Numbered from the whole stretch's first letter, positions 3,689-57,152 are shown. The stretch is DNA of 63,326 nucleotides, filler included, from Asterionella formosa (GCA_002256025.1; 4 parts of 4 records of this genome joined end to end with filler, not necessarily neighbours in it); one strand, 5' to 3'. The notes: generated by a model not told the origin, from the sequence alone. Program-made: numbers and translations.

Positions 3689-5249
3689 GAGAAATTGTTG
3701 TTCGTTTCCAATTATGCTTTGCAATCGTGATTGATTTTGTGAAAAATTCTGAAGGCAAAGATGGATACAAGAATACCGGGTACTGTTTACGTATCATATC
3801 TTATGGAATTGATCTCGAAGTGTGTGAAAGACCATTTTCCACAGCAACCTTGAAGTAAACTTTCGATGCTTTAACCAAGGTTGTCCAGCGATTGCACAGA
3901 GGACACAATGGACTTGAATTAAAATCTGTGCGTAAGACAAATAAAGTACGAAGGCAGTTATGTATGCGTTAAAAGAGAAGTAGTTACCTGCGAATAGACA
4001 TTTCCATTTATCCTGGCGAAATTTTATTTTTTCTTGCTCGAAGGACAACGAAGAAATAACGCTGAAATAGCTTGCAACCTCTCACAATAATGGCCTCTTG
4101 TATTCACAGGGGTCAGTATTAGGAATGGTTGTTCTAGCATACCACATAAGCTCGGTAAATTGTCACCACCTGTACCACTGCAAATATGGTCGTGATCAAA
4201 TCGCCATGGTCCATGCAGCCAACCGTACCTGCCTTACACCTATATACTGGTACATAGTTAGTAACTGATGGTATGACCCAGTACTTCTTACCGCCTCCCG
4301 CTCTTCACACATTGTTTTAAAAGGCGACCAAGCAAGTGGCGAAAGAAACAAGGTCATGAATAATGTGAACAGAATGTTAACAGTTGCCAAGCCCACAATG
4401 TTCGTCAATGTATTGATCACTACCAGCAACACATGATACATTCTCATTTAACATGAAGGGTCTNNNNNNNNNNNNNNNNNNNNNNNNNNNNNNNNNNNNN
4501 NNNNNNNNNNNNNNNNNNNNNNNNNNNNNNNNNNNNNNNNNNNNNNNNNNNNNNNNNNNNNNNNNNNNNNNNNNNNNNNNNNNNNNNNNNNNNNNNNNNN
4601 NNNNNNNNNNNNNNNNNNNNNNNNNNNNNNNNNNNNNNNNNNNNNNNNNNNNNNNNNNNNNNNNNNNNNNNNNNNNNNNNNNNNNNNNNNNNNNNNNNNN
4701 NNNNNNNNNNNNNNNNNNNNNNNNNNNNNNNNNNNNNNNNNNNNNNNNNNNNNNNNNNNNNNNNNNNNNNNNNNNNNNNNNNNNNNNNNNNNNNNNNNNN
4801 NNNNNNNNNNNNNNNNNNNNNNNNNNNNNNNNNNNNNNNNNNNNNNNNNNNNNNNNNNNNNNNNNNNNNNNNNNNNNNNNNNNNNNNNNNNNNNNNNNNN
4901 NNNNNNNNNNNNNNNNNNNNNNNNNNNNNNNNNNNNNNNNNNNNNNNNNNNNNNNNNNNNNNNNNNNNNNNNNNNNNNNNNNNNNNNNNNNNNNNNNNNN
5001 NNNNNNNNNNNNNNNNNNNNNNNNNNNNNNNNNNNNNNNNNNNNNNNNNNNNNNNNNNNNNNNNNNNNNNNNNNNNNNNNNNNNNNNNNNNNNNNNNNNN
5101 NNNNNNNNNNNNNNNNNNNNNNNNNNNNNNNNNNNNNNNNNNNNNNNNNNNNNNNNNNNNNNNNNNNNNNNNNNNNNNNNNNNNNNNNNNNNNNNNNNNN
5201 NNNNNNNNNNNNNNNNNNNNNNNNNNNNNNNNNNNNNNNNNNAGTGAGT

Positions 5250-6713: not shown

Positions 6714-8713
6714 ATGAAGTTTCGCCTTTCCTGTCTATTACCTCTAATCATTGCGTCATCTACGGAGGGTCATAATGATAATGACGACTCAAGCCGTCGC
6801 CGTCGTTGCGCCACAAAGAGTCCAGATCCCGACGCTTCCGCTCATCTAAGCGCCGATATTCAGTCGAGGAAGCTACTACTATCAACTGCCATCCAAGAAA
6901 TTGTCATTCCGACACATTTTGTCATGTGAGAATGCACTACCAAAGAGCGCCAGCGTCAGATGCTTCTTTTCATTGTCTGTCACTCGAATTCGGAACTGAC
7001 GCCCTCTATCCATTTTCATGATTTTCTCAGATTCAAATCATCCAATGCACCCTCAGAAATGCCGCAAACATTCGTCAACGCACAGATGCAAGTCTTGAAT
7101 GAAGGATATTCTCAAACACCCTTTCAATTTAAGCTTGCAATCGTTCAATACGTCGTTAAAAAGACGCATTACTCGAGCATGGCTGAACCTAACGATAGTA
7201 ATGTTGGGGCACTCTACAAACAAGGTGGCACAAACACATTAATGGTTATTGGGGAAACAAGAACATAGGGGAGTCCTTTACACGTTTTACGACACTGTTG
7301 CATGTGGGCGAGGCTGACTTTTCAGCAGATGGTATCTTTATGGATATTTCTACTATCCCAGGAGGAAGCTCCAATTGCTGTCATCTTGGAAAGACATTGG
7401 TGCATGAGGTAGGGCATTGGCTTGGATTGTACCACACCTTCGAAGGCGAATCGTGTGCAGCTACCAACCCAGGAGACTATATCTCGGACACACCTCAGCA
7501 GGCCGATAAGACGGATAATGAATGTCCCTTGCATCGAGATTCTTGCCCAGGCATGGCCGGTCTCGATCCTATCCATAACTTTATGGATTATTCCAGTGAC
7601 GATTGTTTGAATGAATTTACCCCGGGTCAAATAGAGCGAATGTANNNNNNNNNNNNNNNNNNNNNNNNNNNNNNNNNNNNNNNNNNNNNNNNNNNNNNNN
7701 NNNNNNNNNNNNNNNNNNNNNNNNNNNNNNNNNNNNNNNNNNNNNNNNNNNNNNNNNNNNNNNNNNNNNNNNNNNNNNNNNNNNNNNNNNNNNNNNNNNN
7801 NNNNNNNNNNNNNNNNNNNNNNNNNNNNNNNNNNNNNNNNNNNNNNNNNNNNNNNNNNNNNNNNNNNNNNNNNNNNNNNNNNNNNNNNNNNNNNNNNNNN
7901 NNNNNNNNNNNNNNNNNNNNNNNNNNNNNNNNNNNNNNNNNNNNNNNNNNNNNNNNNNNNNNNNNNNNNNNNNNNNNNNNNNNNNNNNNNNNNNNNNNNN
8001 NNNNNNNNNNNNNNNNNNNNNNNNNNNNNNNNNNNNNNNNNNNNNNNNNNNNNNNNNNNNNNNNNNNNNNNNNNNNNNNNNNNNNNNNNNNNNNNNNNNN
8101 NNNNNNNNNNNNNNNNNNNNNNNNNNNNNNNNNNNNNNNNNNNNNNNNNNNNNNNNNNNNNNNNNNNNACCAAACCTTCAACGCCTTCGTTGCCACGAAC
8201 CAAATCTCCAACAAAACCATCCCAACGCTGGGACCAAATATTTCAAAGCCAAGCAAAGCGCCAATCAAACACTCATTCCACGCTGAAACTAAATCGACAA
8301 AGGCACGACACAGCACCAGAATCCCATTTCGACCAAGCGTTCATCATAAGATGAAATCAAATCCCAAGAAAAGACCGAAGGGGAAAAACTGCAGCGATCA
8401 CAAAACGACGAGTTTCTTTGTAAGCAACATTCAAGAGTTTCGAAACTGTAATTGGCTATCGAAACAACAACCAGAGTACAAAAAGGTCCTTTGCATCGAA
8501 GAAGGTACTGGGAAGATATGTTCCACGACATGCGGTCACTGCACTATAGTAAACAAGTGCATAGATTCATCTTCCAAATTCAAGCTTACCAACAACGTCG
8601 AACGCGATTGTAAGTGGTTACGTTTGCGTCCCGAAATTCAAAATCAGATTTTTCTCCCTGGAAGTGATGCATATAAAAAGTGTGTGGAGACCTGTAACTC
8701 TTGTGAACAATGA
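6714..8713 (+). CDS. Secreted M43 (pappalysin/ulilysin-like) zinc metallopeptidase with C-terminal Cys-rich repeats; apparent 1-bp frameshift
   Basis: Signal peptide from ATG 6714 and a GT-AG intron at 6926-7030 that restores the frame. Zinc motif HEVGHWLGLYH and Met-turn NFMDYS are present. The frame shifts near 7240, an N gap covers 7645-8168, and two C..WL...C..TC..C repeats end at the stop at 8713. Confidence 0.8.
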
Positions 8714-29107: not shown

Positions 29108-29696
29108 TCTTGCACGGTTCGCCGAGTCCAGCCTGGGCGCAAATGCTTATTGGAGTCTTTGATTCGCGCTTCTCTCCTCATTCACTCTCCATCCTTTAGC
29201 ATTGCATACTTGCTTGTGTGGCTATCTATCTATACGTAATATACTGAGCATTCATGATTGCTTTTCCCTGTTGCAACAGGTACCGGTATTATTAATCTCA
29301 CGGTAAAATGAGTACTGGCAAGGATCCGCTGCTTGCTTTTAATCATTTTCTCTGATAACAAAGTCGTCATAGGAAACATCCACGGTGGACAAGAAGGAAC
29401 CTGCTGGATGGTGCAAGTATGTCAGAGTGTGTCTGTTAGGCTGTTGATGTCGACAGGTGTCCGAAGACTAGGTAGTCTGAGGAATGTCTAAACGGAAATA
29501 GACAGGATTTATATAGCAGAAGAATCTGCAGACGAGCGGCGTGAGAAAGATCTTGACCGGTCATTCCAGGGCAGTACTGGAGCGCGCTAGAGTAGCGCCA
29601 TATATTTCAACATGGTAGCGGGCTCGTTAGTACAAGTGGTACGAGGAAGAACNNNNNNNNNNNNNNNNNNNNNNNNNNNNNNNNNNNNNNNNNNNN

Positions 29697-29708
29697 TTAA
29701 TTAATTAA
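29697..29708. other. Artificial assembly linker TTAATTAATTAA
   Basis: Six-frame-stop spacer flanked by 44 N on each side. Confidence 0.95.
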
Positions 29709-29752
29709 NNNNNNNNNNNNNNNNNNNNNNNNNNNNNNNNNNNNNNNNNNNN

Positions 29753-30519: not shown

Positions 30520-30753
30520 CGCTGATCGTTGACTTTGAAAGTATGGAAAATATAGTGATTGTTTCAAATGCCATTGCTAGCTTCAAATAAATAATACGTA
30601 TCATAACTCGAGAGAATTTGGCGTGGGTCATTTCATTTTTGTTTTTGACAAGACTCATCCTCAAATTAGTGCCTCATATCACGCCCCATGCCCCATGCCC
30701 CATCCCCCATGCGAGCTATGCTACGAACCAGTACGTACTTGTACCTTTTACCT

Positions 30754-30794
30754 GGCTTTGGAGGCGCGAGTAGGTTGACCGAACGAGTGGTGCC
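30754..30794 (+). repeat. Fragment of the GA-hairpin repeat family, inverted relative to the copies at 33680-36960
   Basis: ggcgcgagtaggttgaccgaacgagtggtgcc matches the reverse complement of 33929-33960 (ggcgcgagtaggttgaccgtacgagtggcgcc) with 2 mismatches. Confidence 0.8.
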
Positions 30795-31337
30795 GGCAGG
30801 ATCTATATATCCACCCTTTGCATCATGAGCTGCTGGCTCCATCATTGTGGTCCCACCCGGGATTACCTGCACCTGCAAGTTGCGGTAATTTTAACCAACT
30901 AAAGATTTAGCTATCTTTATCCCGGATTAAATTGTTGATTTCAGCAAATTGACCGCAACTTAATTATCAATCGTTCGAAATCCAAGAACAATGATCTCGG
31001 ACGGTACCAGGTACCAGCATCACAGCGATGCCGATACTTACCGGTTGCAGACACAAATCTACTACTCAAAACAGTACCTGAACCGTATTCTACAAAGAAA
31101 CAACAAAATTTGTAGTCCTGTGTACATACCGGATTGAACCAATTTTGTCGGATATAACAGCTATCTATTCTGCTATAGCCGGAATGATGAAATCGCCCTT
31201 GTACGAAGTACTCAGTATGCCATTTAGATAGTGAGTGATAAAATCGACTCCGAGGGAATGAAAGAATACCGGTATTTCACTTGAATCATTTTCGTCCAAA
31301 TCATAACTACTGTCTATTTTCATTCGTTTCAAGCCGG

Positions 31338-31460
31338 TTTCTTAAGTATTCTCAAGCACGTCTTGATTTGCTTCGTTGGGTCGGTTTGTGCCAACTTTCA
31401 GTTTCATAAGTATTCTTAAGCACATCTTGATTTGCTTCCTCGGGTCGGTTTGTGCAACTT
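31338..31460. repeat. ~64 bp tandem duplication
   Basis: Two copies of taagtattct.aagcac.tcttgatttgcttc...gggtcggtttgtgc.aactt. Confidence 0.85.
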
Positions 31461-31660
31461 GATCACATAGGTTAAAAAAATTGATAAGGTTTGTCAAGGC
31501 AGCTTTGGACAAGACTTTGTTCGGTTGTTCGTGCGGTTTGCAAGAATAAGTGTGTGTACATATCCTGCCAATTTTAGCGACACTGCGCAGCCAAAGGGAT
31601 AACTAAAATGGACAAGNNNNNNNNNNNNNNNNNNNNNNNNNNNNNNNNNNNNNNNNNNNN

Positions 31661-31672
31661 TTAATTAATTAA
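31661..31672. other. Artificial assembly linker TTAATTAATTAA
   Basis: Same spacer within N runs. Confidence 0.95.
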
Positions 31673-32354
31673 NNNNNNNNNNNNNNNNNNNNNNNNNNNN
31701 NNNNNNNNNNNNNNNNTGCCTGTCTCCCAACGATTGTCATCCAAGTAGATACCACATTGATGGCTTCATTATATTACCTTAAACATTCTCCATCCTTCGA
31801 AGGCGCAATGTGTCGAAGTCACAATGTTTTTCGTTATGTATTGTGAAAATTTTCTTTTCTCTTAATGTGCTTTACTACGACGTATCTTTTCATGAAGCAG
31901 CAGGCATTGTTTGTTAACATGACAGAACGATTTCAAAAATATATTGGCCATGAATATAGTAATAAAATTTGTAAATATATATATATATATATATAGCGTT
32001 ATACATTTTATAAAATTCAAACGCGCTCTCGATATGGAACATCTGATATGGTTGAGATCATCATACTCGCATATACATAATTCGAAAATACTCAATGCAA
32101 TACATGTCCATTGTTTTCCACGACTACGTGTACCGGAATTGTTTCTGAAATTTGTTTGCATCGATATTTTCTATGTCCGTTGAAACTAATTATTTAGACC
32201 GTTAAATAGCCGCCAGGGTTTTGGTAGCAAATTGTTTAAGCCCCTTTTTTGGTCGGGAGCTCTTCATGTGTACCGGTACATCATACCGGTATGACAATAA
32301 CAATATATCATATACATATACAGAGTACCAGTAGCAGGTAGTAAGTGATATACT

Positions 32355-32778
32355 GGGGGTAGTCGGAGAAGTAAACTAGCAACAGAACACCAAATGTTCA
32401 GGACTGTTGCTACTGCAGTGGGACAGTAAATCATCATATTTTTAGGATCGTATGATCGTAAAAACCACCAAAAAAAACCATATGTTTATGACTGTTGTAA
32501 TTACATTGGGACAGTAAATTATCATAGTTTTAGAATCGTATGATCGTAAAACTAAAAACAAATAGAACACCATATGTTCATGACTGTTGCAATTACAGTG
32601 GGACAGTAAATCATCATAGTTTTAGGATTGTATGATCGTAAAACTGAAAAGCGGTATGGGTAGTCAGAGTAATAAGCAAGCAATAGAACACAATAGTAAA
32701 TCATCATAGTTTTAGGATTGTATAAATAGAACACCATATACATATGTCTATGACTGCTGCTACTAAAGCGGGACAGTA
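32355..32778. repeat. ~90 bp satellite with higher-order structure
   Basis: gggacagta occurs at 32420, 32508, 32600 and 32770. The unit is agaacaccatatgttcatgactgttgc...gggacagtaaatcatcatagttttaggat.gtatgatcgtaaaa, and gggtagtc.gag recurs at 32357 and 32658. Confidence 0.85.
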
Positions 32779-32811: not shown

Positions 32812-33186
32812 GGAAGACAACGACAACCAGCTGGTCGTGTTGCTGGTCCACTTTTAATGGCCAAAGAAGGAAGCGACGAAAAGATCACCATTACGAGCGG
32901 AACGAGAGAAATCGCTTACAACGCCAAGTCTGGACGATTCTTTGAGAATAACTTGCAGGAAGAAGAATGCATTCCTGACGAGGAATACTGTGTCGTCGAT
33001 CCGGAAAGTGGGGAACTCATTCGTCCCACAGTAGCCGAAAAGGAGCGTATCTTTCTGGACGCGCTTCAGTCCTACTATGCCACTGGAAGGCAAATGCTCA
33101 AGGATGATGAGTTTGACCTATTGAAGGAGGATTTGCAATGGAACGGATCTGACATGGTTGTCTTGAATCTTTCTTCCTGTTTGTGA
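32812..33186 (+). pseudogene. PGRL1: Truncated fragment of PGRL1 (PGR5-like 1, cyclic electron flow)
   Basis: EYCVVD..EKERIFLDALQSYYATGRQMLKDDEFDLLKEDLQWNGSDMVVL matches the PGRL1 N-terminal repeat. Homology stops at ~33168 and a stop follows at 33186. There is an in-frame stop at 32809, and no signal peptide, TM helices or C-terminal CxxC. Confidence 0.75.
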
Positions 33187-33623
33187 TCAATATCCCATCG
33201 ATCCATTCATTCTCGCAAATGCTTTACTCGATGCCACCAGTCGAAACGATTGAGGTAGCTAATGAGTAGATATTGGCAGGACGCGCAGACGTTGAAGATA
33301 TATAGAAATAACATCCTCTGCAAATGCATTGTTTCATAGATACGAAATTAGTTATCATTTACTAACAGCTAGGTATATGTGTTACGGTTAGATCTCTTCC
33401 ATTTCTCCTTCTTCTTCACACTGCATCATATTTCTCCGAACACTACTACCCGTAGTAAGGTAATGTTCATAAGGTAGATGAACATTTTCTTCTCTTGCAG
33501 CAGCATATCTTCTGTTCAGCTCCTCAGTATGGCAAGCTCGTTCCCTTATATTGTAAGCAGAGAAATTGCCCGATGTCTCNNNNNNNNNNNNNNNNNNNNN
33601 NNNNNNNNNNNNNNNNNNNNNNN

Positions 33624-33635
33624 TTAATTAATTAA
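33624..33635. other. Artificial assembly linker TTAATTAATTAA
   Basis: Same spacer within N runs. Confidence 0.95.
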
Positions 33636-33679
33636 NNNNNNNNNNNNNNNNNNNNNNNNNNNNNNNNNNNNNNNNNNNN

Positions 33680-34368
33680 AATATCGGACCTTTGGCAATT
33701 TTCGAGGTGAAGATAGGAAATATCCAAAAAAAATTTATATGATGGGCAATAGTAGGCTAAAATTGACATTTATGCTAAATTTGTGGGCAGTAGGTAAGCG
33801 AATGACGCGACGATAGCTAGAGCGGGAATTGCCTCAACAATACCCTTCTCGGCGGCTACTTGCCTTCTCGTATACATGTGTAATCGACTGGGATGGCACT
33901 CGTAGGGTGACCTTCTCGCAGCGCTGGGGGCGCCACTCGTACGGTCAACCTACTCGCGCCACCCAGCCTCGAACACATGTATACTCGCAGGCAAGAGACC
34001 ACCTCGGGCGTGTATTGCCTTCAGCAATCCCAGGGCTAGAAAACCGAGGGGCAATTGGCGTCTGTTGTCTTGCCAAAATGCGAACGTATGAAATATACAA
34101 AATATATTTTAATGATGGGAAATATCGGACCTTTGGCGATTTTCGAGGTGAAGATAGGAAATATACGAAATATATATTATATGATTGGCAATAGCAAGCT
34201 AAAATTGACATTTATGCAAAATTTGTGGGCAGTAGGTAAGCGAATGACGCGACGATGGCTAGAGCGGGATTTGCCTCAACAATACCCTTCTCGGCGGCTA
34301 CTTGCCTTCTCGTATACATGTGTACTCGCAGGCAAGAGACCACCTTGGGCGTGTATTGCCTTCAGCAA
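33680..34368 (-). repeat. Head-to-tail tandem copies A (partial, 33680-34027, long hairpin) and B (34026-34368) of a structured repeat
   Basis: A and B are near-identical over the shared span. A carries an extra ~100 bp between acatgt microhomologies that extends a hairpin. Strand is assigned from the G-A and G-T pairing asymmetry. Confidence 0.9.
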
Positions 34369-35339
34369 GTATTTCATTGTGCGACCTGCCAACAAGAACT
34401 TCTAAGTAATTTTTAGGTTGCAAGTAATTTCTTAAGTAATTTTAATTTAGGGGCAATATGAGGCACATTAAAATTTCGGCATTAAAATTACAGATTTTGG
34501 CATGACAGCCAGAGTGATGGTAATATACATAGAAATTGCATAACCAGAGTTAAAGACACACAAATGATTGTAACAAGCAATATCAATGAGAATTGAACAT
34601 GATGTTTGGAGCAACCAAAGAATGTTATGCAATTTAATAATTATCTTCAAATGAGAAATAGAAAATATTGTTTTGGGATAGAAATAAAGTGAAAAATAGG
34701 AGTTTCAGTGGAGACGCATGCATTGTAGTACTTAAACAGGCAACTTTGACTTTCCATCACACAATCGAAGAGCGAAAGAAAACAGATACTAAGAAGAAAA
34801 ATCTGAACTGAATTGAGATCTGCATCGTGATGTAGCGTTGATGATCTGGTTGCTGCAACCAGCATGAACATCACATTTCTACTACGAGTTCGCATCACAA
34901 GCTATGTATATTCAGCTAGAGGGAGTCGATAGTGCTGGAGCATTCTGACGATCATAATCAATCAGAATGGATTGGAATGGAATGGAATGAGCGATCAGGA
35001 TTGCTTGGTGGGAGGAAGGACTTTTGGCGGAAGGGCTGCAACTTGTGTCAGGCTACTACAGAAGTAGAGCGCGTTAGTACTACAAGAAAAGCATTGCTTG
35101 GTGGCAATATTGACATCATGGTCAACGACTATACAAATCAACAAATAAGATCAACAACGGCGCAATATATCTTCAAAGAGTAGTCATTGATAAATATATT
35201 GGTTTTATGTAGATAGATACAATTGAAACAAAACGACAGTGCATAACGACAAACACCAATGGAAGCGATCAAAACAGACCATGGAAGCAATCAAATTGGA
35301 AATTCGATAAATAGGAGCGATCTACAATCTACATTCAAA

Positions 35340-35945
35340 TATAAATGTCATTTATTAAGCGCCTTATTGCTGCTCTATTATCAGTAGGGGAGCCCTCATG
35401 GCGCTTCCTGGCATACCAAGCCTGGGTTTCGTTGAAATGAGTAAAATTAACCCTAACCCGCCTGGTATCAACCCAACATATGTGGTGACTCTAGGTGCTT
35501 GTACGCGGGAGGTGGTGGTGGATACACTCTCTCGAGGAAGAGTCAGGGTAGTACTTAATTGTGCTGTTGTGCTGTGCTTTTCAGACTTCTGCCTCGTTTG
35601 TCAACGGGTGAAGAAAGTTGTGAGCTGGGTTTGTGAGCGCAAAGGAGTTTGCGGCCACACTGTAGGTCTTGGCTGTTTGTATTCCAAATGTCTTGGAGTT
35701 GTACTGTAAAATTGGTGTAGAGTCCGTTGACCTTTTTTGGCCAGATGCGCCGACTCTTCGAAAAGAAATGCTGCTTTTTCCAAAAACCTGCGTTTTGTTC
35801 CTAGCCGTGCAGTCAGCAATTCCTGGAGGGTCTTAGAGAAAAGATGTGAATCTCTTTGTTGATTGTGTGTTGCTGCTTGTACAACCTCTTGATTTTTTTA
35901 TCATAGTCAGATTGAGTTATGCTCGCGTTTGTTCCTTTGTGCATT
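35340..35945 (-). mobile_element. Probable 3' remnant of a non-LTR retrotransposon (ORF2 C-terminus plus 3' UTR)
   Basis: Frameshifted YDKKIKRLYKQQHTIN / DSHLFSKTLQELLTARLGTKRRFLEKA..QRTLHQF resembles my recollection of C-termini of diatom LINE RT ORFs. No RT core is present. Confidence 0.35.
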
Positions 35946-36618
35946 CAGTGTTTCACTGTCGTACTCACCGATCCCCTCTAACTAGCATAACTAGCAGCAG
36001 TCAATGGGATCAAAGAAAGACGAAAGTTGCTGTTGCAAGCCCGAATAGAGCAACGGCAAGCAGGATACTAGAGTGAGAATTATAATTGTGAGGACGAAAT
36101 CGGCCAGGCATACATAAAATCAATCAATATGTGAATGATATAATTTAACATTCTGTTAAAGTAAAGATAATACTGAGTTACAGCAATAATATTATAATGT
36201 GTTCAAAGTTAGCATTAAAGTTTAGCTCAAACCATGCATGGTTGTTTTTAGCCGTACCACGTATATATATAGGCTATATGACTGGAATATCCGTTAAGCA
36301 TCATTACATACTAGTACATGACCGGAGCAAAAACTTGCCACCCACATCAGATTTATACCAGAGCAATATCATTGTTTGTCCAAAGAATTATGGACAATGA
36401 TGTGACAACATGAATCCCACGAGAAGACAACAACGAATTGCTACTGGCGTCATCACTGAACTGATTTCGCTTCAGACTGGGCATGATGGATAATGATCGG
36501 CATGGTGAAAGGTGAATTGCCGGAGTCAGTTTTCAGGAGAGGAATAAAAACGAGGTGAATATTAATCAAATCTGTAGAGTATATAAAATGGTGTCAGGTT
36601 AACCCAATTTCGGCAAAA

Positions 36619-36960
36619 AATCCCAGGGCTAGAAAACCGAGGGGCAATTGGCGTAAATTGTATTGCCTAAATGTGAACATGTGAAATATTCAAAACATAT
36701 TTTAATGATGGGAATACAGACCGATTGCAAATTTCGATGTGAAGATAGGAAATATTCAAATTATATTTTATATGATGGGCTGTAGCAAGCTAAAATTGAC
36801 ATGTCTATTCAATTAGTTGGCAGTAGGTAAGTGAATGCGGCGCGACAATAGTTAGTTTGTGAATTGCCTCAACAATACCGTTCTCGGTGGCTACATGCCT
36901 TCTCGTACACATGTGTACTCGCAGGCATGAGTCCACCTCCGGCGTATTGCCTTCAGGATT
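36619..36960 (-). repeat. Diverged copy C of the structured repeat
   Basis: Begins aatcccagggctagaaaaccgaggggcaattggcgt, identical to 34026-34061, and is collinear with copy B to gtattgccttcag. Confidence 0.9.
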
Positions 36961-37086
36961 AAACCTACGTCACTAATCGTGATACAGTCGATTTCGAAGA
37001 ATTTCATAGCAATCGATGACGTCCTCTATTATTTTCATCAAAATGACCGCAACTTGCTGCTTATTTGCTTTCAACATACCAGCACC

Positions 37087-37944
37087 ATGACAATGTTGAT
37101 CCGCTTAGCGATCGTAGTTGCCTGCGTCCAATACGAGGCTAGCAACAGCCATGCTTTTCCATTAAATCGAAACTCTTTTCGTCCAATTAGATCATTAGGA
37201 AACACTGCTCGAAGTCCACGGTGGCTTCTTCCTCTATCCATGTTGTCTGATGAAAGGGTACAATATCTCAGGGACAGGGCCGCTCAACTTCGTGAGCAAG
37301 CTCGGGAGATCCGTTCGACCCTTCCAGTCGAGCCTCCAACTATCCCTTCTACGGAATTACCTCTGAAACCTGTCTCTGAATGGGAAGTGTCCACCGACTG
37401 CGAAGGAGTCGGATATCGCCTGCATCTTGACATTGGCAGAGAACCGGGAACTTGGATGGACCCTCTATGGGGAGCGAGTGGAAAGCGAATAGAAGCAGCA
37501 CTCGATATATTTTTTTGTTCCGAAAACTTGGCTAGCGAAGCGAGACGAGAAAAAATGGTCAAGGATAACTTCGGGGGCAAAAGCTCTGCGGTGTACCAAC
37601 TCGAGTCGGCAAAATCAGCTCGACTTCGAAATGGGTTTGATAGGATGAAGTGTTCTGGTGGAGGATATCGTGTAGATAAAGCAAGCGATGGAAAGACCTT
37701 GAGATTTTTTGTGCAAGTTGAAGGGAAAGAAGGCGCAGACTATGGCGACATTTCCATTCCAAAGGGCGACCTCTACTTTTCACTTCCTTGTTTTGGCCAA
37801 GGAGTCTCGCAACTGTCGTCAAGGGAGGGCCTTATTTCAGTGCGCCAAATCGGATGGCATACTGGTTTTCGAAGAAAAGAGAGTAGAATTGTAGGAATAT
37901 TCCGGGCTGCGCCAATAAATAAGGCGAACAAACTAAATTTGTAA
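37087..37944 (+). CDS. Hypothetical protein, probably plastid-targeted
   Basis: ATG 37087, hydrophobic signal ending SHA|F, then an Arg/Ser-rich transit-like region. A coiled segment precedes a globular domain (LDIGREPGTWMDPLWGASGKR). Confidence 0.75.
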   Translation: MTMLIRLAIVVACVQYEASNSHAFPLNRNSFRPIRSLGNTARSPRWLLPLSMLSDERVQYLRDRAAQLREQAREIRSTLPVEPPTIPSTELPLKPVSEWEVSTDCEGVGYRLHLDIGREPGTWMDPLWGASGKRIEAALDIFFCSENLASEARREKMVKDNFGGKSSAVYQLESAKSARLRNGFDRMKCSGGGYRVDKASDGKTLRFFVQVEGKEGADYGDISIPKGDLYFSLPCFGQGVSQLSSREGLISVRQIGWHTGFRRKESRIVGIFRAAPINKANKLNL

Positions 37945-38071: not shown

Positions 38072-41000
38072 TCAGTGCAATAACCCACGGCAAATGTCAC
38101 AATTTGGATCAGGCGGACTTTGGATGGCTGGTGCGCCTAAAAGTAGAGTTGATAGCGTAGATCCTCCGATTCTCAGTTCACTAGTCAAATCACCATGATA
38201 CATAGCCTCCAGCTTCTCAGTGAAAGCTCGACTTTTATTTCCTTCGTTGCTGCTGTATTCGTCTCGCTGTCGCTTCTGCTGATGATCGCTTCGGAATTTT
38301 GCGACGTTGTCCAATGCTCGTTTGCTGCGAGCAAGAAAATGGTCACCGTCAGAAACGTTTTCTTGCAGCAACGCAGGGGTCTCTGGTACATAAGCATGGG
38401 AACATGGCGATTTAGGCACCTGGTTTGTTGCAATATTGCAATCCGAATCTAGTAACATTTCATCATCCAATTGTGCCTCCTGCTTTATAGTTGGTAACCA
38501 TGTTGTACGAAGAGGGAATCGGTTGGATCTTGTGGCCTCACCAAAGTTCCCAAATGCTTCTGGAATAAAAACAACATTGTCCCCGGGGTGACTCAAATGT
38601 TGAATGCATCCTTCAACAACGTGATCAAGCATACCTGCAGGTAGGTAAACAGTCCCAGCTCCTTTATTTGCTTGATACTCTCCCCACCATTCTGTGGCAC
38701 AATCTAAACAACGCTGGAATTGTTCGACTACCATCATGGACTTTAACTCGGCCTTTATTTGATCTGGTGCGTTGGAAACAAGATTTCCAACTGATCTCTC
38801 AAATGGCGACAAAAGCAAACTGTGCAAGGCCTCAAGAGTCGGTTCGACATTACTCCTCATCAGACTTTTTTGCCAGTGCAATGGAAGATCTCTGCCTTCA
38901 CCGAAATAATCTGGCACTACCCCATGCTGTGCGAATTCAAAGGATGGCCATGAGAACCACTGTGACAAGCGAAAATTTGTTGCAAAAGTCTCTAGCTCAA
39001 ACGGAATTCTCAACAAAGTCGCCCTTGCCCTTTCCAACAAAACCTCAGGAGCAGTGACGGAGCACGTCCACAATGTTTCCTTTAAACAAGCAATGATTAT
39101 TTCATGAATCCCGACGATACATACTCTTGATACCTGATCCAATTCGATCGACGAGTTCATTAGTGACTCGGAAGCAGTAACGAGTGATTGCTCAAAGTCA
39201 TGGAGTTCGTTCCCACAGAGCGTTACAACTGATTCAGAAAAACTGGCGGCAATCAGCTTTTCAACACTACTACCGTATCGCTCATCGGAACCATTGTCAA
39301 GATTTAAGACCGTGATAGACACACTTTCGTCCAACAGTGACAAAGTCGAATAAATGTCAGTTTCAGTGATTTCCGCATCCCCCATGGCAGGTGGAATAAC
39401 TAACAAAGCCATGTCAGTTCCTCTCAGACTTTCAGGTTCAGCACCATTGACAACAACTACCCTTAAATCATATTGATGGGCAACAGAACGTTGCCTCGTA
39501 TGGATTTTGCCGTATTTGAGCCGCATACCAATCCATTCATGAAGTAGATCATAAACGCCTTCGCCCTCAACCGAATCGAATTGTTGTAGCCTGGGAATAA
39601 CTACTGCAACCTTCAGTAACACTAAGAGTCTTTGCTCCTTTGAATCTGGCATATTCTCTTGAACGGGAAATCGAAGATCTTGACATGTCTCATCCTTTCG
39701 CAACGATGCAAGATCGACGATTTGGGAATCATGGTGGCAAAGCAACTCAAGAAAATCACTGATGAACAACTCAACTGGACGGTTTGAAGCTGTCTCACAT
39801 TCACCAATGAGATCCAATTTAATTGGGACAGAGAAGATTGATTCTTGTTCAGTAAGCGTGGTTATCATCTGTGACAAGGTCTGTCTCGTTCGAACTCGAC
39901 GCAGGCGAGAATGCAGACTCTGGCGTAATCGTCGCCACAAGATTATTTTCCTAGCAATATCAATCTTCTCTTCCCATTCTCGTCGTTCTGCTTCTTCATT
40001 TCGTCTCCTTTCCTCCTGTTCGCGTCTTTCCTTTAATAACAGAATTTGGAGTTGTCGCAAGTGCTCCTCCTTAGCTTTCAGCTGTTTCATTTCCTCGAGA
40101 ATCAGTAGCCTTTGGTTTTCGGCTTTTCGTGTTTCTTCTTCCATGCGTTGTCGCTCTTCCTTTTCTGCGGTTATCCTAGCTACCTCTTTTTCTGCAGCAG
40201 CTCGCTTGATTTCAGCTTCCTTTCTGTTTCGTTCCTCCTCTGCAGCGATGGCGGTCATTCGAGCTACTTCTGCTTCCATCTGTAGGCGCTCCACTTCCGT
40301 TCGGCGCTTGTCATCTTCTAATGCCAGAGATTGGGCCATTTCCTCCTCCTGTTTCCGTTTCAAAAACAGCTCTCTCTTCTTGGCTTCTTCTGCTTCTGCC
40401 CTGGCTGCTTCAAAAGAGAGCCGAATTTCAAGTGCTTTCCTTTCAGCTTCTCGACGATTGTTGGTTTCTTCCTCCTCTTTCTTGAATAATTCTTGTTTTG
40501 TTTCGATCATTTGCCTATCTTCGTCAACATCAAGCACCGCGGGTTGTGTTTCTACGTACATGCGTGGATGCTTTTCTTTCACTTTTACGGGGGGACCGGC
40601 AGCAAGGGTATGGAATGATTTGGAAAGAGTGGCACCGGGACCACTCACTTCGCCTCGACAAACAGCAAGACGTGTCGCTCCTTTCAGCTTCCTTTCTATT
40701 GTATTAACCATTTTCCAAGGCCTCAAACGAATAATTATTCCTCGCTCCTCATCTTTTGGCTCACGGAATTTGGATCGCTTCCAGAACACAAACTCCATGC
40801 TTTTCTTTCCAGTTGGCGATGAAGTGGATGATACAAAATGATCTTTGACTGTTATGTTGTAATGTCCACATGCAATTCTAGCTTCATCCATACTTTCAAA
40901 GCAAAGGAGTCTGGTCAGATCTTTGAGCAGATAATTATCATAAATAGGTTCCGAATCCTTTCTTCTGTATCCATAGGTTGCACACATAGTTCGCAAGGCC

Positions 41001-43664
41001 ACTTTTCTCATTTCCTCGACATGTTTGAACATCAAACAGGAAAAAAGATATGGCGTCGACGGTGATCTGAGAATAGAAAAGAATCGAGCGTAATTCACCT
41101 CATGCTTTGCTTTAAAAACCTCCATTGCAAGCTGAACTGGTTTGGAGAGGAAGATCTCAGGTCGCCTACGCGAGAGCTCGGCAGCGTAACTAAGGACTTC
41201 CATTCCATTGTCATTGTCTAACGTGAGTAAAATGTACAGCCCTCGCATTTCTGGTTCTGCGGTAGTGTTCTTCGAGCCATTCGCAGTATGTGCACCAATC
41301 AGGCGATCTGACAAACGAATCTTGTCCTTGTCATTATTCAATGGAGTGCCGTCATAGTCGACAGGGGGAACACCTTGAACTATGTCGAATTGGCAACCAA
41401 AGGCTTGACCGGCGATAGAAGTCCTGGTTTCCGTCCCTGCCTCGTCCGGAACTTCAACAGTTGACCGTCTCAGAGAATCGTCGTAGAACTGGTTTAATGT
41501 TTTCATCGCTTGACCGAGTTCCGCAATATTTTGTTGTGACTGCATTCGTACAAAATCAGGAATATGACTAAGTTGGTGTTCGCACATTGCATGCCATCGG
41601 GCAATGCGTTCATGACAACGGACAGCTCGAGCATCACATTGGCCACCACTACCGACGAAATTCTGAAGAATGAAATCCTTCCTAATCATTCGAGTTCGAT
41701 CCCAAATAAATTGATAGACATCTAAAGGCGGAGGACTTGGTGCTTGCGTAAAACGAGGGTCCGGCCCCTGCCTGTCACGTTCCTATCATCATATAAATCG
41801 TGTTGCTTTTGTGTAAGTAACAACGAATTTTTAGCACGAAATAAAGAACACATGCCGTACTCACCATAACCCATTCTTCAAGATATGAACATGTACGTTC
41901 CAAGACATCTGGTGGTCTAACCCACTCAGGAATATCCAACTTGTAATCGGCTGCTGATCGACGAAAGCGTTTTACGGCCGTCTGCCTTAAATTCCAGTCT
42001 TGGGGATGAATTGTTCCAGGTTGAGGAATTTCCAACAATTGAATGTCTCCTTCTTGTTCTCGCTGTCTCAATTCGTGATCAGGACACATATGTGGACAAG
42101 TGCCGACTAATGCGACGGCATATTCTAAATCAAGTTGAGTATGTAATTTTCCCTCTTGAGTTGATGAGGTTGGCTTCTTCACTATCGTATCGAGCACCAA
42201 GTCTGAAGGCATCTGAGAACGAGTGGCGGTGTTTACTACCTTTTGAGAAAATCGCAGTGAATTTCTGTCTGCCAACGAAGAATTGGGACTCACAGGACAT
42301 GTTGTGTCCAAGGGTGACGGTGACTTCGTGGATGTCGGTGGAGGTGTCGCCGACGTCAGTTTGCGTTGTTTATGCTCCTCCAGTTTTTTCTTTTTCGCGG
42401 CAAGTTTAGCCTTTAGTGATGCCAGCTTGTCCTCCTGTTCTTTCTTATCAGGGACAGGGTCAGACATGGACTCTTCCAGTAGATTTGACTGATCGACTGC
42501 ACTATTCATAGTATGTTGCCCGCCAAACGCCATTTCGTTTTGCCCATAGGGAACAGGTGCGACATGAGTACCCATGTCAGATTTCTGATCCCACGCAGAG
42601 CCTCCGTCGGCCATACTTTCGTCATAGAGTTGTTGGTCTTGTGAAGAACCAAAGGTTGTATTTCCAAACCCAGATGATGATGTCCCAAACGCGGCGCTAC
42701 TGTCATAATGTGCAGGTGCCGCTGGTGATCCAAATCTTCCCAACCCTGGGGGTCCAGATGCCGCATTACCAAAGGATCGCGGTGCAGTCGCTCCAAAAGG
42801 CGTACTAGTGAAATTGCTAGAATTTTGAAATGATTGTTGGGTACGATCATTGGTAAACCCCTGAACAGGAAACGAGAGCTGCCCAGATGCTGGCGCGATC
42901 ATCGAAGAAGCTCCAAATATGATTGCTGGAGCTGGTGCCGCCGAAGTGGTACCAAATGGACTTGCTTGAAATGATGGTGACTGTGATACATTCGTAATAG
43001 CTGCGTTGCTCAGAACGGAAGAACTGGTCCCGAACCCTCCAGTTGCAGAAGCTGGGCCCATTCCTCCAAAGCCGCCACCGGCGGCTGCTGCTCCGAAGGG
43101 TGTTTGATTGAACGAATTTCCAGTATTATGTCCGCCGAAATTAAGAAAGGATGCCTGTGAGACCTCGTTTTGAACTGGAGCGAGAAAGGCGTTTGGAGGC
43201 TGTATGGTGCTACTGGTATTACTAAAGGAGGCAGGAATAAAGGCTGATGCTGTTACATTCATTCCGGAGGAAGTACCGTACGACGGCGCAGATGCGCCAA
43301 AGGTCGGAGGATGAGAAGCGAAGGAAGGATTCAGATTTGCTGTAGCAAAGGGTGTTGCAGTAATAGAATTACCAAACGGAATCGATGGCGCAGAGGAACC
43401 AAAAGAATTCAATGCCTGGGATGATCCAAACGAGGCCGTATTGTTGGTGTTTCCAAAGTTTGACATCCCCTGTGCTGCATTCGTAGAACTGCTTCCAAAG
43501 CCGAATACAGGCGCTACATTGCCGAAACCACTTGCAGCAAAGGAAGTTGGGGGCTGTGACGAACCAAAGCCTCCTGCTTGAAAGTTTTGTTGTTGCTGTT
43601 GTTGCGATTGACCATAGTGGGGCGCTTGTTGACCGCCAAACCCGCTATTTCCAAAGCCGGACAT
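38072..43664 (-). CDS. SAC3: SAC3/GANP-family protein (TREX-2 scaffold) with FG-repeat N-terminus
   Basis: Exons 43664-41865 and 41782-38072 (GT-AG, phase 0). FG-rich N-terminus, then LVGTCPHMCP, AVKRFRRSAA, VRPPDVLERT, FIWDRTRMIRKDFILQN, ERIARWH and NYARFF, followed by a long coiled coil. Confidence 0.9.
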
Positions 43665-45799
43665 GCTCAAGAAATATTGCGGCTATCTGAAATAATCAAT
43701 GACCTTATGGGAAACAGCAAATGAACTGCATTCGCCATGAGCGTCGTTTCTGCTGTCAATTACCGGTATGCTTTCTCTCGATCCTCAACAGAACAGCATA
43801 CCAATGTGTGTACCGGTATATTGGGTATTATATTTGTTTAGGAAATAAATAATATACCACTATGTAGGGATGACAATTTCCATCTTTGCCTGAGTCCAGC
43901 ACCAAACAATAAAAATAATATGACGAGTCACGAGGATCGTGGACTCGACAACAGTCCAATGAATCAAATGGTGCGTGCCCAGCATGTCAAGACACTTGCT
44001 AACAAGCAAGATTGTTGTTATATCGGAAATAATTTTGAAATATCAATAACATTATCTGTTAGATCAATTGAATTGATATCTCAGGTTATGACTTTACACA
44101 GATCACCTTATCTTTTTGTAAAAACTTGAACCAGATGATTGCATAATGATTTTTGTGCATAAGTTCTTTGTTGCCATTCCGATTTGAACACTTTACATGT
44201 GTTGATGCATTTCATGTACTGGCACACTGGTAATCAAATGTCTTCCCTTTGTGCTCATCGAACAACCCCTCATGAGCTACCATCTCAGGGGGACAACAAA
44301 GATCTTGGTCTTGCAATGACTGATATGGTTTCGATTTTGAAGGGGAATTAAGACAGAAAAGTCAGATTGTTTGTTTGTTAAAAAAAGCAAAAGCTTTGGT
44401 CAATTAATATGACGGAATTGGAGAACAATCCATTGAAGGCCATGCCTGTTTACCATCCAAAATCAAGAAGATAATTCTTTTTTATCATAATTCTCCTAAT
44501 GCAAACATTGGTTCATATTTCGAATCTGTTCTTCAAGATGAGATATGGATCAAAGTGAAGATGGTCCAGATGGCCGCACAGTTTGTTTCTTGTGGCCTTT
44601 ATCATGGGTCTTCCAGTCTCATTGGCTATTGGAGAGAATGTTGCAGACTTAGAGAGCACAGACATCATGAATCAGGAAGTAGCTTCATCACTTGAACAGA
44701 ATGATCAATCTGGAAATAGCAGCATTATGTCAGACAGACAATGATTTGCAATAAGTTGATACATACTTAGCTATGCATAGGAATAACTTGTCTGATTCTT
44801 ACTATATTATTTAACTATATGATTACAGAAATAAACTGGAATGCTCAAAATCATGAAAAGAAGTGTGGGTTCGAAATGATTAGAATTTTTATTAAGTCAC
44901 TAACTTCTACGTCAGGTAACAACAACACCAACTGCCATGCTTCGTTCCAGCAGCTTCTTCCTGCATTCAATAGACAAATCGAGCCTTGTTACATGGTCGT
45001 AAAATGTTTGGAACAAGTTCTACACCACCGGTGTACCGGTACCTGGTACACGAGGGAATACAGGATGATTGGGGGATACAGGACACCGGGTTTACGGTCC
45101 TATGTAGGGTACCCTGCCTTGTAGTTCGGGTGAAAGAATAAGAAGGAACTATCTGGTACAATCCACGCAATACAACTCGTCACCAAGATACTGACAACTT
45201 CTTCAACCCCATGTGCCCCCAGTGGTTCTTTGTTGTCGCTTGCTGCTGACGCACGCAAACAAAAAACAACATTACAACAACAACGAGCACCTCGTGCCCT
45301 TGTCCTCACTGGAGCCCGTGCAGGATCGGTTCCTCTCCTATCAAAAGGCCTTGTTGCATGTTCTGGTTATAGTCAGCCGGCTCGATCGGCTTTTTCTTCC
45401 GATTCAAAGATGCAGTTTACCTGGTACTCTCTGGTACTATTCTGCATGACATCCGAATGTAAGTCGGCGGATGCCCAATTATTGATTTGCACGAATACAC
45501 ATATAGTTTTGTATGCATTCGTAAAGGTATATGTATATATTGACCTACAAGACTCTTGCTCGGCACGACCTCAACGAAAAATATGTCCCACTCCACAATA
45601 AGACTGGCGTACTATCCAACTGCCAAGCCGATTGCCACCAAAAATCACTTGATGCTCAGTATATATACCTGGTACTCAAGGTACCCTGGGACCTTGTAAG
45701 AAATACCCCGTACCCTCCTAGCTGTAATGTGATTCATATCAAGGGATTGCAGCAATCACAACGAACAAAAGGTTTGGATATCAAACGGACCAATCCACT

Positions 45800-55636: not shown

Positions 55637-57152
55637 CTAGTGCGTCGCAATGCTCTCCAGCATGTCAAAGTAGGTAGGGAACGTTTTCGCCGTGCAACCA
55701 GGATCTTCGATAATCACATTGACTCCACCGCATGCCGCTAGACTGAAAGTCATGGCCATTCTATGGTCATCATAAGTCTCGATCACAACATTATCGTTTA
55801 TCTTGTTGTCCTTTGGTGGATGAATGATGCAGTAATCATGAAACTCCTCCACAGTTCCACCCAACTTGGTGCACTCAGCAACGATTGCTTTCATTCTTTC
55901 AGTCTCCTTCAGTCGCCAAGAGTAAACATTGCGAATTGTAGTAGGTCCTTCGGCAAACAAAGCTACAACACCCAATGTCATGGCAGCATCAGGAATTTTT
56001 CCACAGTCAACATCAACTCCCTTCAACTTGACACTTGGATCACGAGTCACCGTGATACTATCTGCAGCCCAGGTCACAGTGGCCCCCATTTGCTCCATAA
56101 CATTGGCGAACGCTACATCGCCTTGCACACTCTCCGATCCACAACCACGGACAGTGACTGTTCCTCCTGTTATGGCAGCTCCAGCTACAAAGTAACTAGC
56201 CGAACTCGCGTCACCTTCGACCAAAATCTTTTGAGGCGACATGTACTTTTGCTCAGCAGAAATATGGAAAGAGGGGGTTCCATTCATGTCACCTTCAATA
56301 TCAACAGTGACCCCAAACTTCTTCATCAAACCGATAGTAAGTGAAACATACGGAGCCGAAATCAGCTCGTCTTTGATGGAAATGGTTACGTCACCATCCA
56401 CAATAGGAGCAGCCATCAAGAGTGACGATAGGAACTGAGAGGACATTTTTCCACTGATAGACGCCTGAATCGAAGTGAGTGCAGGAAACCCAACGCGCCT
56501 GCAAAATGATGCAACTTCCATGACTCACCTTTCCGCCTTTCAATCCATTCGCATTGATAGTGACAGGAGGACAACCAGTCTCTTCGACACACGTAACATC
56601 GGCACCAAGCTGCCGCAATCCATCAATGAGGTCGGCGATAGGTCGCTCACGCATTCGAGGAACACCATCCAAGACAAACTTCCCTTTTCCCATACACAAG
56701 GCAGCAGCCAACGGTCTCATAGCAGTGCCGGCATTTCCCAAGAAGAGGTCACAAACTTGTTCTGGATCAGGGGAGTTGATTGGTCCAGCTTGTCCGGTGA
56801 CAATCACGGTGTCAGCGTTCACTCGCTCGACCGGAACATTCATCTGATCGAGCGCTTCGAGCATGAAGCGGATATCATCGCTCTCTAGTAAGTTCTCAAC
56901 TACGGTACTTCCCTCGCTCAACGCGGCCAAAAGCAAACATCTGTTACTCAAAGACTTGGATCCTGGTAGCGTGACAATTCCATCTAATGACTTGATGGGT
57001 GTCACTGTCAGCGTCTCCAACTTTTGCGCAGAAGCAGCCAGCGCAGTTGCCTTTGTTCCGAAATTCGCCTTCGTAAATGCAAAGCTATTGGCAGAATGGG
57101 TCATGCCCAAAATGCAGAAAGCAGCACGAAGGATCGTCATCGTCAACAACAT
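55637..57152 (-). CDS. aroA: EPSP synthase (stand-alone, plastid-targeted)
   Basis: Exons 57152-56529 and 56464-55637 (64 bp GT-AG intron). Motifs [59 protein letters not shown] and KTFP. The signal ends ANS|F. Confidence 0.96.

Follow-up and report, generated by a model that had tools for sequence, protein, structure and literature searches.

A non-coding repeat that is present in many copies in Asterionella formosa contains a very stable, rod-like hairpin of 200-250 nt in which G-A mismatch loops recur at regular intervals. The hairpin was analysed in a stretch of DNA of 63,326 nt, here called the window. It looks shaped for one strand only, the minus strand of the window, and the repeat is most likely a non-autonomous mobile element. 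The explanation that we favour, tentatively and at a little under even confidence, is that the hairpin is a cis-acting structural module of this unclassified element, selected on the minus strand and probably acting as RNA.

Fold and loops of the long hairpin

The long-form hairpin of copy 1 (Table 1) was folded on both strands with DNA and with RNA parameters and compared with 200 dinucleotide shuffles in each case, the control proposed in an earlier sequence-only reading of this DNA. With DNA parameters the plus strand folded at -48.6 kcal/mol (z -6.87) and the minus strand at -56.0 kcal/mol (z -7.53); with RNA parameters the values were -91.9 kcal/mol (z -7.32) and -120.6 kcal/mol (z -10.09), the minus-strand RNA being the most stable of the four. 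None of the 200 shuffles folded as well for any strand or parameter set. The structure had been described as strand-specific, and the fold is indeed biased to the minus strand under both sets of parameters.

The complementary arms and the CTCG and ATCG positions listed in the sequence-only reading were all present. CTCG occurs at 33848, 33867, 33899, 33915, 33936, 33953, 33968, 33984 and 34003, and the tenth site, at 33883, reads ATCG. Successive sites are 19, 16, 16 and 16 nt apart in the left arm, 21 nt apart across the centre and 17, 15, 16 and 19 nt apart in the right arm, so that the spacing of ~16 nt that had been claimed holds (15-21 nt, mostly 16). The nine CTCG words in 208 nt compare with 0.58 expected from the frequency in the whole window (170 CTCG and 164 CGAG; Poisson P(>=9) = 1.2e-8), and CGAG was absent from the plus strand over the same 208 nt.

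In the minimum free energy fold of the minus strand the opposed words pair as C-G, G.A, A.G, G-C five times, which is the loop composition that had been predicted. A sixth purine loop, GAA opposite GA, was found near the base, where a further loop of the GA type had been placed. Four of the five CGAG/CGAG loops are accompanied by a further mismatch, one pair from the loop in the direction of the base. Tandem sheared G.A pairs stabilise helices in a pyrimidine-GA-purine context.

Table 1. Features of the repeat and its hairpins in the window
Feature	Position	Strand	Description and basis
Assembly gap linker	33580-33679		adjoins copy 1 on its left; 44 N, 12-nt all-frame stop word, 44 N
Repeat unit 1, full	33680-34120		blastn
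Head of copy 1	33680-33823		A/T-rich; ~69-nt subrepeats ending in GATGGGCAAT-like words; repeat families, blastn, L003 fold
Long-form hairpin, copy 1	33824-34031	-	folds, loop ladder, CTCG count, pair census
Tail	34032-34120		stretch of the left part of the element, attached where hairpin 1 ends; blastn and sequences
Repeat unit 2, directly after unit 1	34121-34368		blastn
Head of copy 2	34121-34265		93.8% identical to copy 1
Short-form hairpin, copy 2	34266-34368	-	without the central ~97 nt; covariance model 149.4 bits (minus strand)
Right part, also repeated	34369-34879		covered by many X1 contigs
Copy 3 left part, tail and head	36378-36860		~82% identical to L003 107-615; left limit approximate
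Short-form hairpin, copy 3 (diverged)	36861-36956	-	compensatory changes; covariance model 132.1 bits
Isolated 35-nt fragment of the long form's right arm	30760-30794	+	opposite orientation; 91% identity

Asymmetry between the strands

A plain inverted duplication would put CGAG opposite CTCG, so that CTCG on both arms requires two transversions at each of the five sites; simple inverted duplication had been dismissed as the source of these words, and on this count it is excluded. On the other strand the CTCG sites are pyrimidine-pyrimidine mismatches (U.C/C.U), and the duplex DNA does not make a perfect palindrome. That both arms carry one and the same 4-nt word, in one orientation and regularly spaced, suggests that a single-stranded form is under selection.

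The pairs of the minus-strand fold were counted in the window copy (42 C-G, 24 A-U, 10 G.U, 11 G.A, 3 A.C, 2 U.U, 2 C.U and 1 G.G) and in the related metagenome contig L003 (52 C-G, 32 A-U, 10 G.U, 11 G.A and 2 A.C). It is true that mismatches become G-T wobbles on the minus strand, as the sequence-only reading had it, but the effect is weaker than it appears: the 10 G.U of the window copy compare with 3 opposed A.C (binomial p 0.09), and the 10 of L003 with 2 (p 0.04). Taken alone this wobble bias is marginal; the main strand asymmetry of the hairpin is the G.A loops themselves.

Copies of the repeat in the window

A blastn search of the repeat unit against the 63,326-nt window found three copies and one fragment (Table 1). 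Copy 1 begins directly at a gap linker, which indicates that the assembly broke inside the repeat. Its tail is joined at a GCAAT word that is common to the end of hairpin 1 and to the left part of the element, and copies 1 and 2 are therefore a partial tandem duplication. The blastn match of copy 3 extended over 36619-36956, and its leftward continuation to about 36378 was recognised by comparison with L003; on the right, copy 3 stops at the hairpin base against unrelated flanking sequence, ~130 nt upstream of a plus-strand ORF. When the window was searched with a covariance model built from the short form, only three loci were found, all of them already known and on the minus strand (149.4, 132.1 and 49.2 bits), and no further copies. 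Separately, a GCCCCAT tandem repeat (x4.3) was noted at 30683-30712, 50 nt upstream of the isolated fragment.

Taken together, L003 and the window copies give the order of the element as a left part of at least 280 nt, then tail and head, which hold two or three of the ~69-nt subrepeats, and then the hairpin. The last ~25 nt of the head of copy 1 correspond to the left half of an outer stem that is complete in L003. Copies of the L003 type continue past the hairpin into the second half of this outer stem and then into the right part, which was aligned between L003 697-1184 and the window from about 34309-34403 to 34771 with 80% identity. In the metagenome contig L021 and in copy 3, by contrast, the element goes no further than the base of the hairpin, where unrelated sequence begins. 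Behind 34026-34028, all four of the sequencing runs whose contigs were placed on the repeat also have loose ends, and their continuations are mixed (agreement 0.36-0.62). These loose ends and the ends of L021 and copy 3 point to a boundary at the hairpin base in one subfamily. Copies of the L003 type run on into more repeated sequence, so only in the subfamily with this boundary is the hairpin terminal.

GGCAAT, counted together with its complement, has a density of 9.7 per kb in 33680-34400 and of 8.6 per kb in 36378-36956, against 0.76 per kb in the window (~12-fold), and could, judged from this distribution, be a protein-binding word that the element repeats. From 34040 to 36930 no stop-to-stop frame exceeds 121 codons, and coding sequence was rejected for this region accordingly. 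The sequence-only reading had proposed a search for an HUH-Rep, RT, tyrosine recombinase or PolB ORF; a domain search of the larger ORFs found none of these in the window. The larger ORFs are ordinary eukaryotic genes, one of which has a diatom cluster as its nearest Atlas cluster.

Several features of the surrounding DNA were also recorded. Three scaffold linkers of identical sequence, each with a 12-nt all-frame stop word between two runs of 44 N, lie at 29653-29752, 31617-31716 and 33580-33679, and plain N gaps at 1623-2542, 4464-5242 and 7645-8168. The window is thus a scaffold of several contigs, and adjacency across those points is unproven. A 92-nt tandem repeat at 32380-32778 (TRF: 3 copies, 84% matches; diverged copies reach 32778) lies just upstream of an ORF starting near 32830, and a 64-nt unit is repeated twice in tandem at 31337-31460. 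EPSP synthase (55637-57152, minus) and SAC3/GANP (38072-43670, minus) are each encoded by two adjacent or overlapping ORFs matching complementary parts of the Pfam profiles, probably as a result of introns or frame breaks.

The short form and conservation of pairing

Copies 2 and 3 and L021 carry a short hairpin without the central ~97 nt, the junction lying where the third and the ninth site each have a TACTCG word in direct orientation. This short form is common to copies that are 12-18% divergent, which indicates a deletion derivative that spread as such and kept the outer hairpin with two loops. The outer hairpin has thus survived in a separately amplified deletion form.

As read from the sequences, CTCG is intact at 10 of 10 sites in L003, 9 of 10 in copy 1, 4 of 4 in L021 and 3 of 4 in each of copies 2 and 3, the base-most site of the copy 2 hairpin having decayed to CTTG; retention counts from these five sequences have too little power against neutral decay.

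An alignment of the three short forms gave 34 pairs, and 97.1% of the 102 cells were paired, compared with 33-47% when the partners were slid by 1-3 columns; pairing was lost in 3 of the 102 cells. Copy 3 has two double changes: in the CTTGCCT/AGGCAAG stem a U-A pair has become A-U, and closer to the base a C-G pair has become G-C. Two one-sided changes that preserve a standard pair (U.G to U-A and U-A to U.G) were also present among the short forms. In the covariation control, 59 of 500 shuffles reached the observed values, a weak result for which three sequences give little power. Covariation and retention of the GA dinucleotides, which the sequence-only reading had made its test of a selected structure, are therefore upheld in part: two compensatory pair changes in copy 3 and a consensus CTCG at 33883 speak for them, and the shuffles that do equally well, with only three sequences, speak against. 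Additionally, the C-G to G-C change in copy 3 is evidence for a GCCN/NGGU helix, a competitor of the base-most CGAG/CGAG loop. In copy 3 that loop is better explained by the alternative pairing, and it is the least secure of the loops.

Metagenome contigs and public sequencing runs

Metagenome contigs were scanned with a 16-nt pattern, too short to be specific, which gave at least 120 loci; the same pattern gave 11 loci in viral contigs. Among the matches listed, the true members of the family were L003 and L021, both metagenome contigs. None of the 11 viral loci was related, and L004 was rejected as a member as it has only 21 nt in common. A 21-nt pattern found no stretch in prokaryote genome contigs and none in viral contigs.

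L003 is an independent contig of 1,185 nt that contains the long hairpin at 97.7% identity over 353 nt, and the hairpin is for this reason not an assembly artefact. All ten sites of the L003 hairpin read CTCG. Its outer stem adds ~24 pairs, extending the rod to ~246 nt, and the minus-strand RNA folded at -150.5 kcal/mol compared with -122.9 kcal/mol for the plus strand.

L021 is a contig of 1,008 nt with a coverage, from its name, of about 1.5, and a chimeric assembly at the repeat is therefore possible. To the right of its hairpin end (L021:520-1008, minus) is an open-ended frame of 162 aa that matches the phage tail-fibre family phrog_4492 (E 1.7e-18) and had no Pfam match.

Parts of 33680-34400 were present in 20 of the 24 public sequencing runs listed, from 16 studies and from freshwater, lake, estuary, marine, industrial-waste and algal samples; six of the runs are on record as RNA. 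Contigs of four runs were placed on 33680-34879: 32,791 from X1, an algal DNA run, and 631, 40 and 7 from the RNA libraries X15, X18 and X16, respectively. As all four are contigs, from which strand, ends and transcription cannot be read and whose summed depths are not copy numbers, they are taken to establish a many-copy family that is present in RNA libraries, and nothing beyond this. The sequence-only reading had assigned the hairpin to a mobile element, and the window copies, L003 and L021, and the X1 contigs bear this out as a repeated, apparently mobile, non-coding element.

Each listed hairpin position was covered by 115-127 contigs in X1. At 33883 the majority of contigs read C in all four runs (115 showing C in X1, 24 in X15, 1 in X16 and 2 in X18), so the ATCG of the window is a private change from a CTCG consensus and the ten sites are all CTCG, as in L003. 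The T at 33925 is likewise private to the window copy. A minority of contigs has CTTG at 33953-33956 (79 in X1, 13% by depth, 10 in X15 and 2 in X18), the change expected from CpG decay.

Record 17 of X16, an RNA-library contig that reveals neither strand nor transcription, spans 33734-34013 with 2 differences and joins 34013 to 34074, without the end of the hairpin and the start of the tail. The X1 contigs contain many further skips, and one joint of opposite strands inside the hairpin (33873/33924). These skips and joints suggest that rearrangement at the palindrome is frequent.

Comparison with known elements and structures

Rfam 15 gave no match over the hairpin at E up to 10 (33000-35000), where the only hits were two sub-threshold snoRNA matches at 33100-33154, and no match at E up to 1 in L003, L021 or 34800-37200. 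The failure of the sequence-only reading to recognise a known family thus agrees with these searches of the hairpin, L003 and L021. ARAGORN found no tRNA-like gene in 33000-37200, and a SINE head derived from SRP RNA, 5S RNA or tRNA was rejected in the absence of an Rfam or ARAGORN match. A ribozyme-bearing retrozyme was rejected in the same way, as Rfam matched nothing in the hairpin region, L003, L021 or 34800-37200. Full-text literature searches found no description of a comparable hairpin in diatoms.

Foldback elements and MITEs are non-coding, have long inverted arms at both termini that fold to a hairpin, and in some cases are built of subrepeats. The present element resembles them in being non-coding, in its long arms that fold into a hairpin and in its subrepeats. 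It differs in that a 4-nt word has the same orientation in both arms, where their arm motifs are inverted, and in that the hairpin accounts for just 100-250 nt of an element whose length is at least 0.6-1.2 kb and in which neither terminal inverted repeats nor a target-site duplication was found. A MITE or foldback element was rejected because both hairpin arms lie together at or near one end, preceded by at least 380 nt of unpaired left part, and because copy 3 has no duplication. An independent small foldback MITE inserted in another repeat was also rejected, no boundary or duplication having been found at the palindrome ends of L003.

Single strands stabilised by G.A pairs are known from dodeca-satellite and satellite III strands, the bubble of the parvovirus terminal hairpin and Streptomyces telomere folds. 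The likeness is that purine-purine pairs stabilise the hairpin of one strand only; however, those are simple-sequence satellites or replicon termini, and the A. formosa structure is an array of CGAG/CGAG loops at ~16 nt separated by unrelated 12-nt helices in a dispersed element. A kink-turn has a 3-nt bulge on one strand directly 5′ of tandem sheared G.A pairs that are flanked by C-G. The loops described here share the tandem G.A flanked by C-G pairs, and four of five have a nearby basal mismatch, but they are symmetric 2x2 loops (C-GA-G / C-GA-G) without an Rfam match, and a kink-turn was rejected. Viroids and delta-like agents are long imperfect rods without a long perfect duplex, as is the hairpin; they are, however, circular, autonomous RNAs without a DNA copy, whereas the hairpin is part of a DNA repeat of a nuclear genome and has loops of a single uniform type.

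Canonical Helitrons have 5′ TC and 3′ CTRR ends, insert between A and T and carry a palindrome of 16-20 nt about 11 bp from the 3′ end, according to PMC4067079. The right ends of the present element read ...CCTTCAGCAA(T/G) or ...CCTTCAGGAT, followed by CCAC, TATT or TAAA. A canonical Helitron was rejected on its ends, which lack CTRR, and on its palindrome, as the hairpin extends up to the boundary and is ~100 nt long in the short form and 208-246 nt in the long form. HINE/DINE-1 elements are described in the same source as non-coding, very high in copy number and often near genes, with internal tandem repeats, an end-proximal palindrome and tandem partial units; they have subterminal inverted repeats of 12-15 bp, TT (or A/T) targets and palindromes of 5-20 nt located 8-35 nt from the end, the 3′ palindrome of the Helentron-associated HINE/DINE-1 group being 5-10 bp. 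Set against that description, the present element is similarly non-coding, with central tandem subrepeats, a palindrome at one end and partial tandem units, and is unlike in its hairpin of 100-250 nt, located 0-2 nt from the boundary in one subfamily. The length of the palindrome therefore does not fit this group as there described and the tandem subrepeats do; the left terminus is known only approximately, from two copies, and neither subterminal repeats nor a T-rich target could be defined from the few ends at hand. Replitrons, according to PMC10288648, have short direct terminal repeats, a short right-end hairpin with an 11-bp palindrome and a Rep HUH gene in autonomous copies, and were not detected in diatoms. 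On these features a Replitron was rejected, as the window contains no Rep gene.

Interpretation

Under the favoured explanation, minus-strand RNA would form helices of about 12-14 pairs joined every ~16 nt by tandem sheared G.A pairs (CGAG/CGAG), which would keep the helix stacked and so give a continuous, stable rod in the minus strand only. At the DNA level the opposed CTCG sites break up perfect complementarity. The rod may be what the machinery that copies or moves the element recognises or uses as a scaffold. Its G.A loops, about 1.5 helical turns apart, might act as repeated contact points, for a protein if one binds, and would keep the long rod stable while avoiding a palindrome or a long stretch of perfect duplex. 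That arms which are otherwise inverted carry one word in one orientation at an even spacing argues for selection on a single-stranded minus-strand fold, in preference to homogenisation at the DNA level. Against this reading, the covariation comes from three sequences and was equalled by 59 of 500 shuffles, and correction of one arm by the other in palindromic DNA could also yield 'compensatory' double changes. The bias of G.U over A.C is marginal and could be produced by a strand-specific C-to-T mutation bias, and the helix competing with the base-most loop of copy 3 weighs on the same side. In addition, the right boundary is drawn from the loose ends at 34026-34028 and two copies (L021 and copy 3), and the hairpin is terminal in only one subfamily.

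The hairpin might act instead in minus-strand ssDNA, as an end-recognition or termination signal of rolling-circle, HUH-type or other ssDNA-dependent transposition, which we consider unlikely. The folds with DNA parameters are far below the shuffles and slightly favour the minus strand (-56.0 vs -48.6), and the element ends 0-2 nt after the hairpin in one subfamily (L021, copy 3 and the loose ends at 34026-34028). The partial head-to-tail tandems and ~69-nt subrepeats also recall non-autonomous Helentron derivatives with central tandem repeats and a 3′ palindrome, as these are described in PMC4067079, and DNA hairpins are commonly recognised by HUH enzymes, according to PMC10288648. The more stable strand, however, carries the hairpin at its 5′ end and not at its 3′ end, and the 3′ palindromes described in PMC4067079 are of 5-20 nt (16-20 nt in canonical Helitrons), compared with 100-250 nt here. 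There is moreover no CTRR end and no consistent T/TT flank among the few ends at hand, the ten G.T pairs would be costlier in DNA than in RNA, the window contains no Rep gene, and Replitrons are reported in PMC10288648 as undetected in diatoms. We regard RNA as roughly twice as probable as ssDNA on account of the larger energy gap between the strands, the ten wobbles that are cheap in RNA and the presence in RNA libraries, none of which is decisive.

If the hairpin acts as RNA, its role need not be in spreading the element. We judge it decidedly unlikely, however, that the locus is a source of hairpin RNA, whether as a small-RNA substrate directed against the family or as a co-opted UTR element for stability, 3′-end formation or translation control. 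RNA-library contigs join the right arm to long unrelated sequence (record 26 of X18 is 2,315 nt at a depth of 599.5), and loose ends of about 255 nt occur behind 34026-34028 in X15 and X18, though the contigs reveal neither transcription nor strand of the hairpin. The location of copy 3, ~130 nt upstream of a plus-strand ORF, and of the L021 hairpin, about 120 nt after the end of a minus-strand ORF, would suit a UTR element, but the orientation relative to the gene differs between the two. Identical, regular CGAG/CGAG loops, furthermore, are neither needed nor expected in a silencing hairpin that arose by inverted duplication. Less probable again is a palindrome without function, in which pairing is maintained by template switching from arm to arm, the strand bias reflects mutation bias and the G.A sites escape correction. 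The central 97 nt are dispensable, as the short form shows, the contigs contain rearrangements of the type expected at palindromes (the opposite-strand joint at 33873/33924 and several skips), the G.U bias is marginal and the covariation control is weak, all of which such a palindrome would accommodate. Yet no neutral process accounts for one word forming five loops, identically oriented and ~16 nt apart, within inverted arms (9 vs 0.58); the consensus that restores the tenth site would be left unexplained, and correction by template switching should remove such mismatches, not preserve them.

A more specific proposal, which we rate as rather unlikely, is that the array of identical CGAG/CGAG loops ~1.5 turns apart is an undescribed type of strand-specific rod on which an oligomerising protein docks at many sites, and that this protein mobilises or packages a non-autonomous diatom element of a new type. 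That the hairpin represents a new class of cis-element has a minority chance.

Significance

Diatom genomes hold many unclassified repeats. As a structured module of a non-autonomous repeat the hairpin is known in kind, and no description of its periodic CGAG/CGAG loop design was found in the literature. If neutral, it would be an instructive example of palindrome evolution. If a function were confirmed, it would be a natural case of periodic tandem G.A pairs building a long rod in one strand, and would provide an easily found sequence tag for metagenomes and metatranscriptomes from fresh and estuarine waters, parts of it being present in 16 studies. It would also give a handle for classifying an abundant diatom repeat family and for finding the enzyme that mobilises it.
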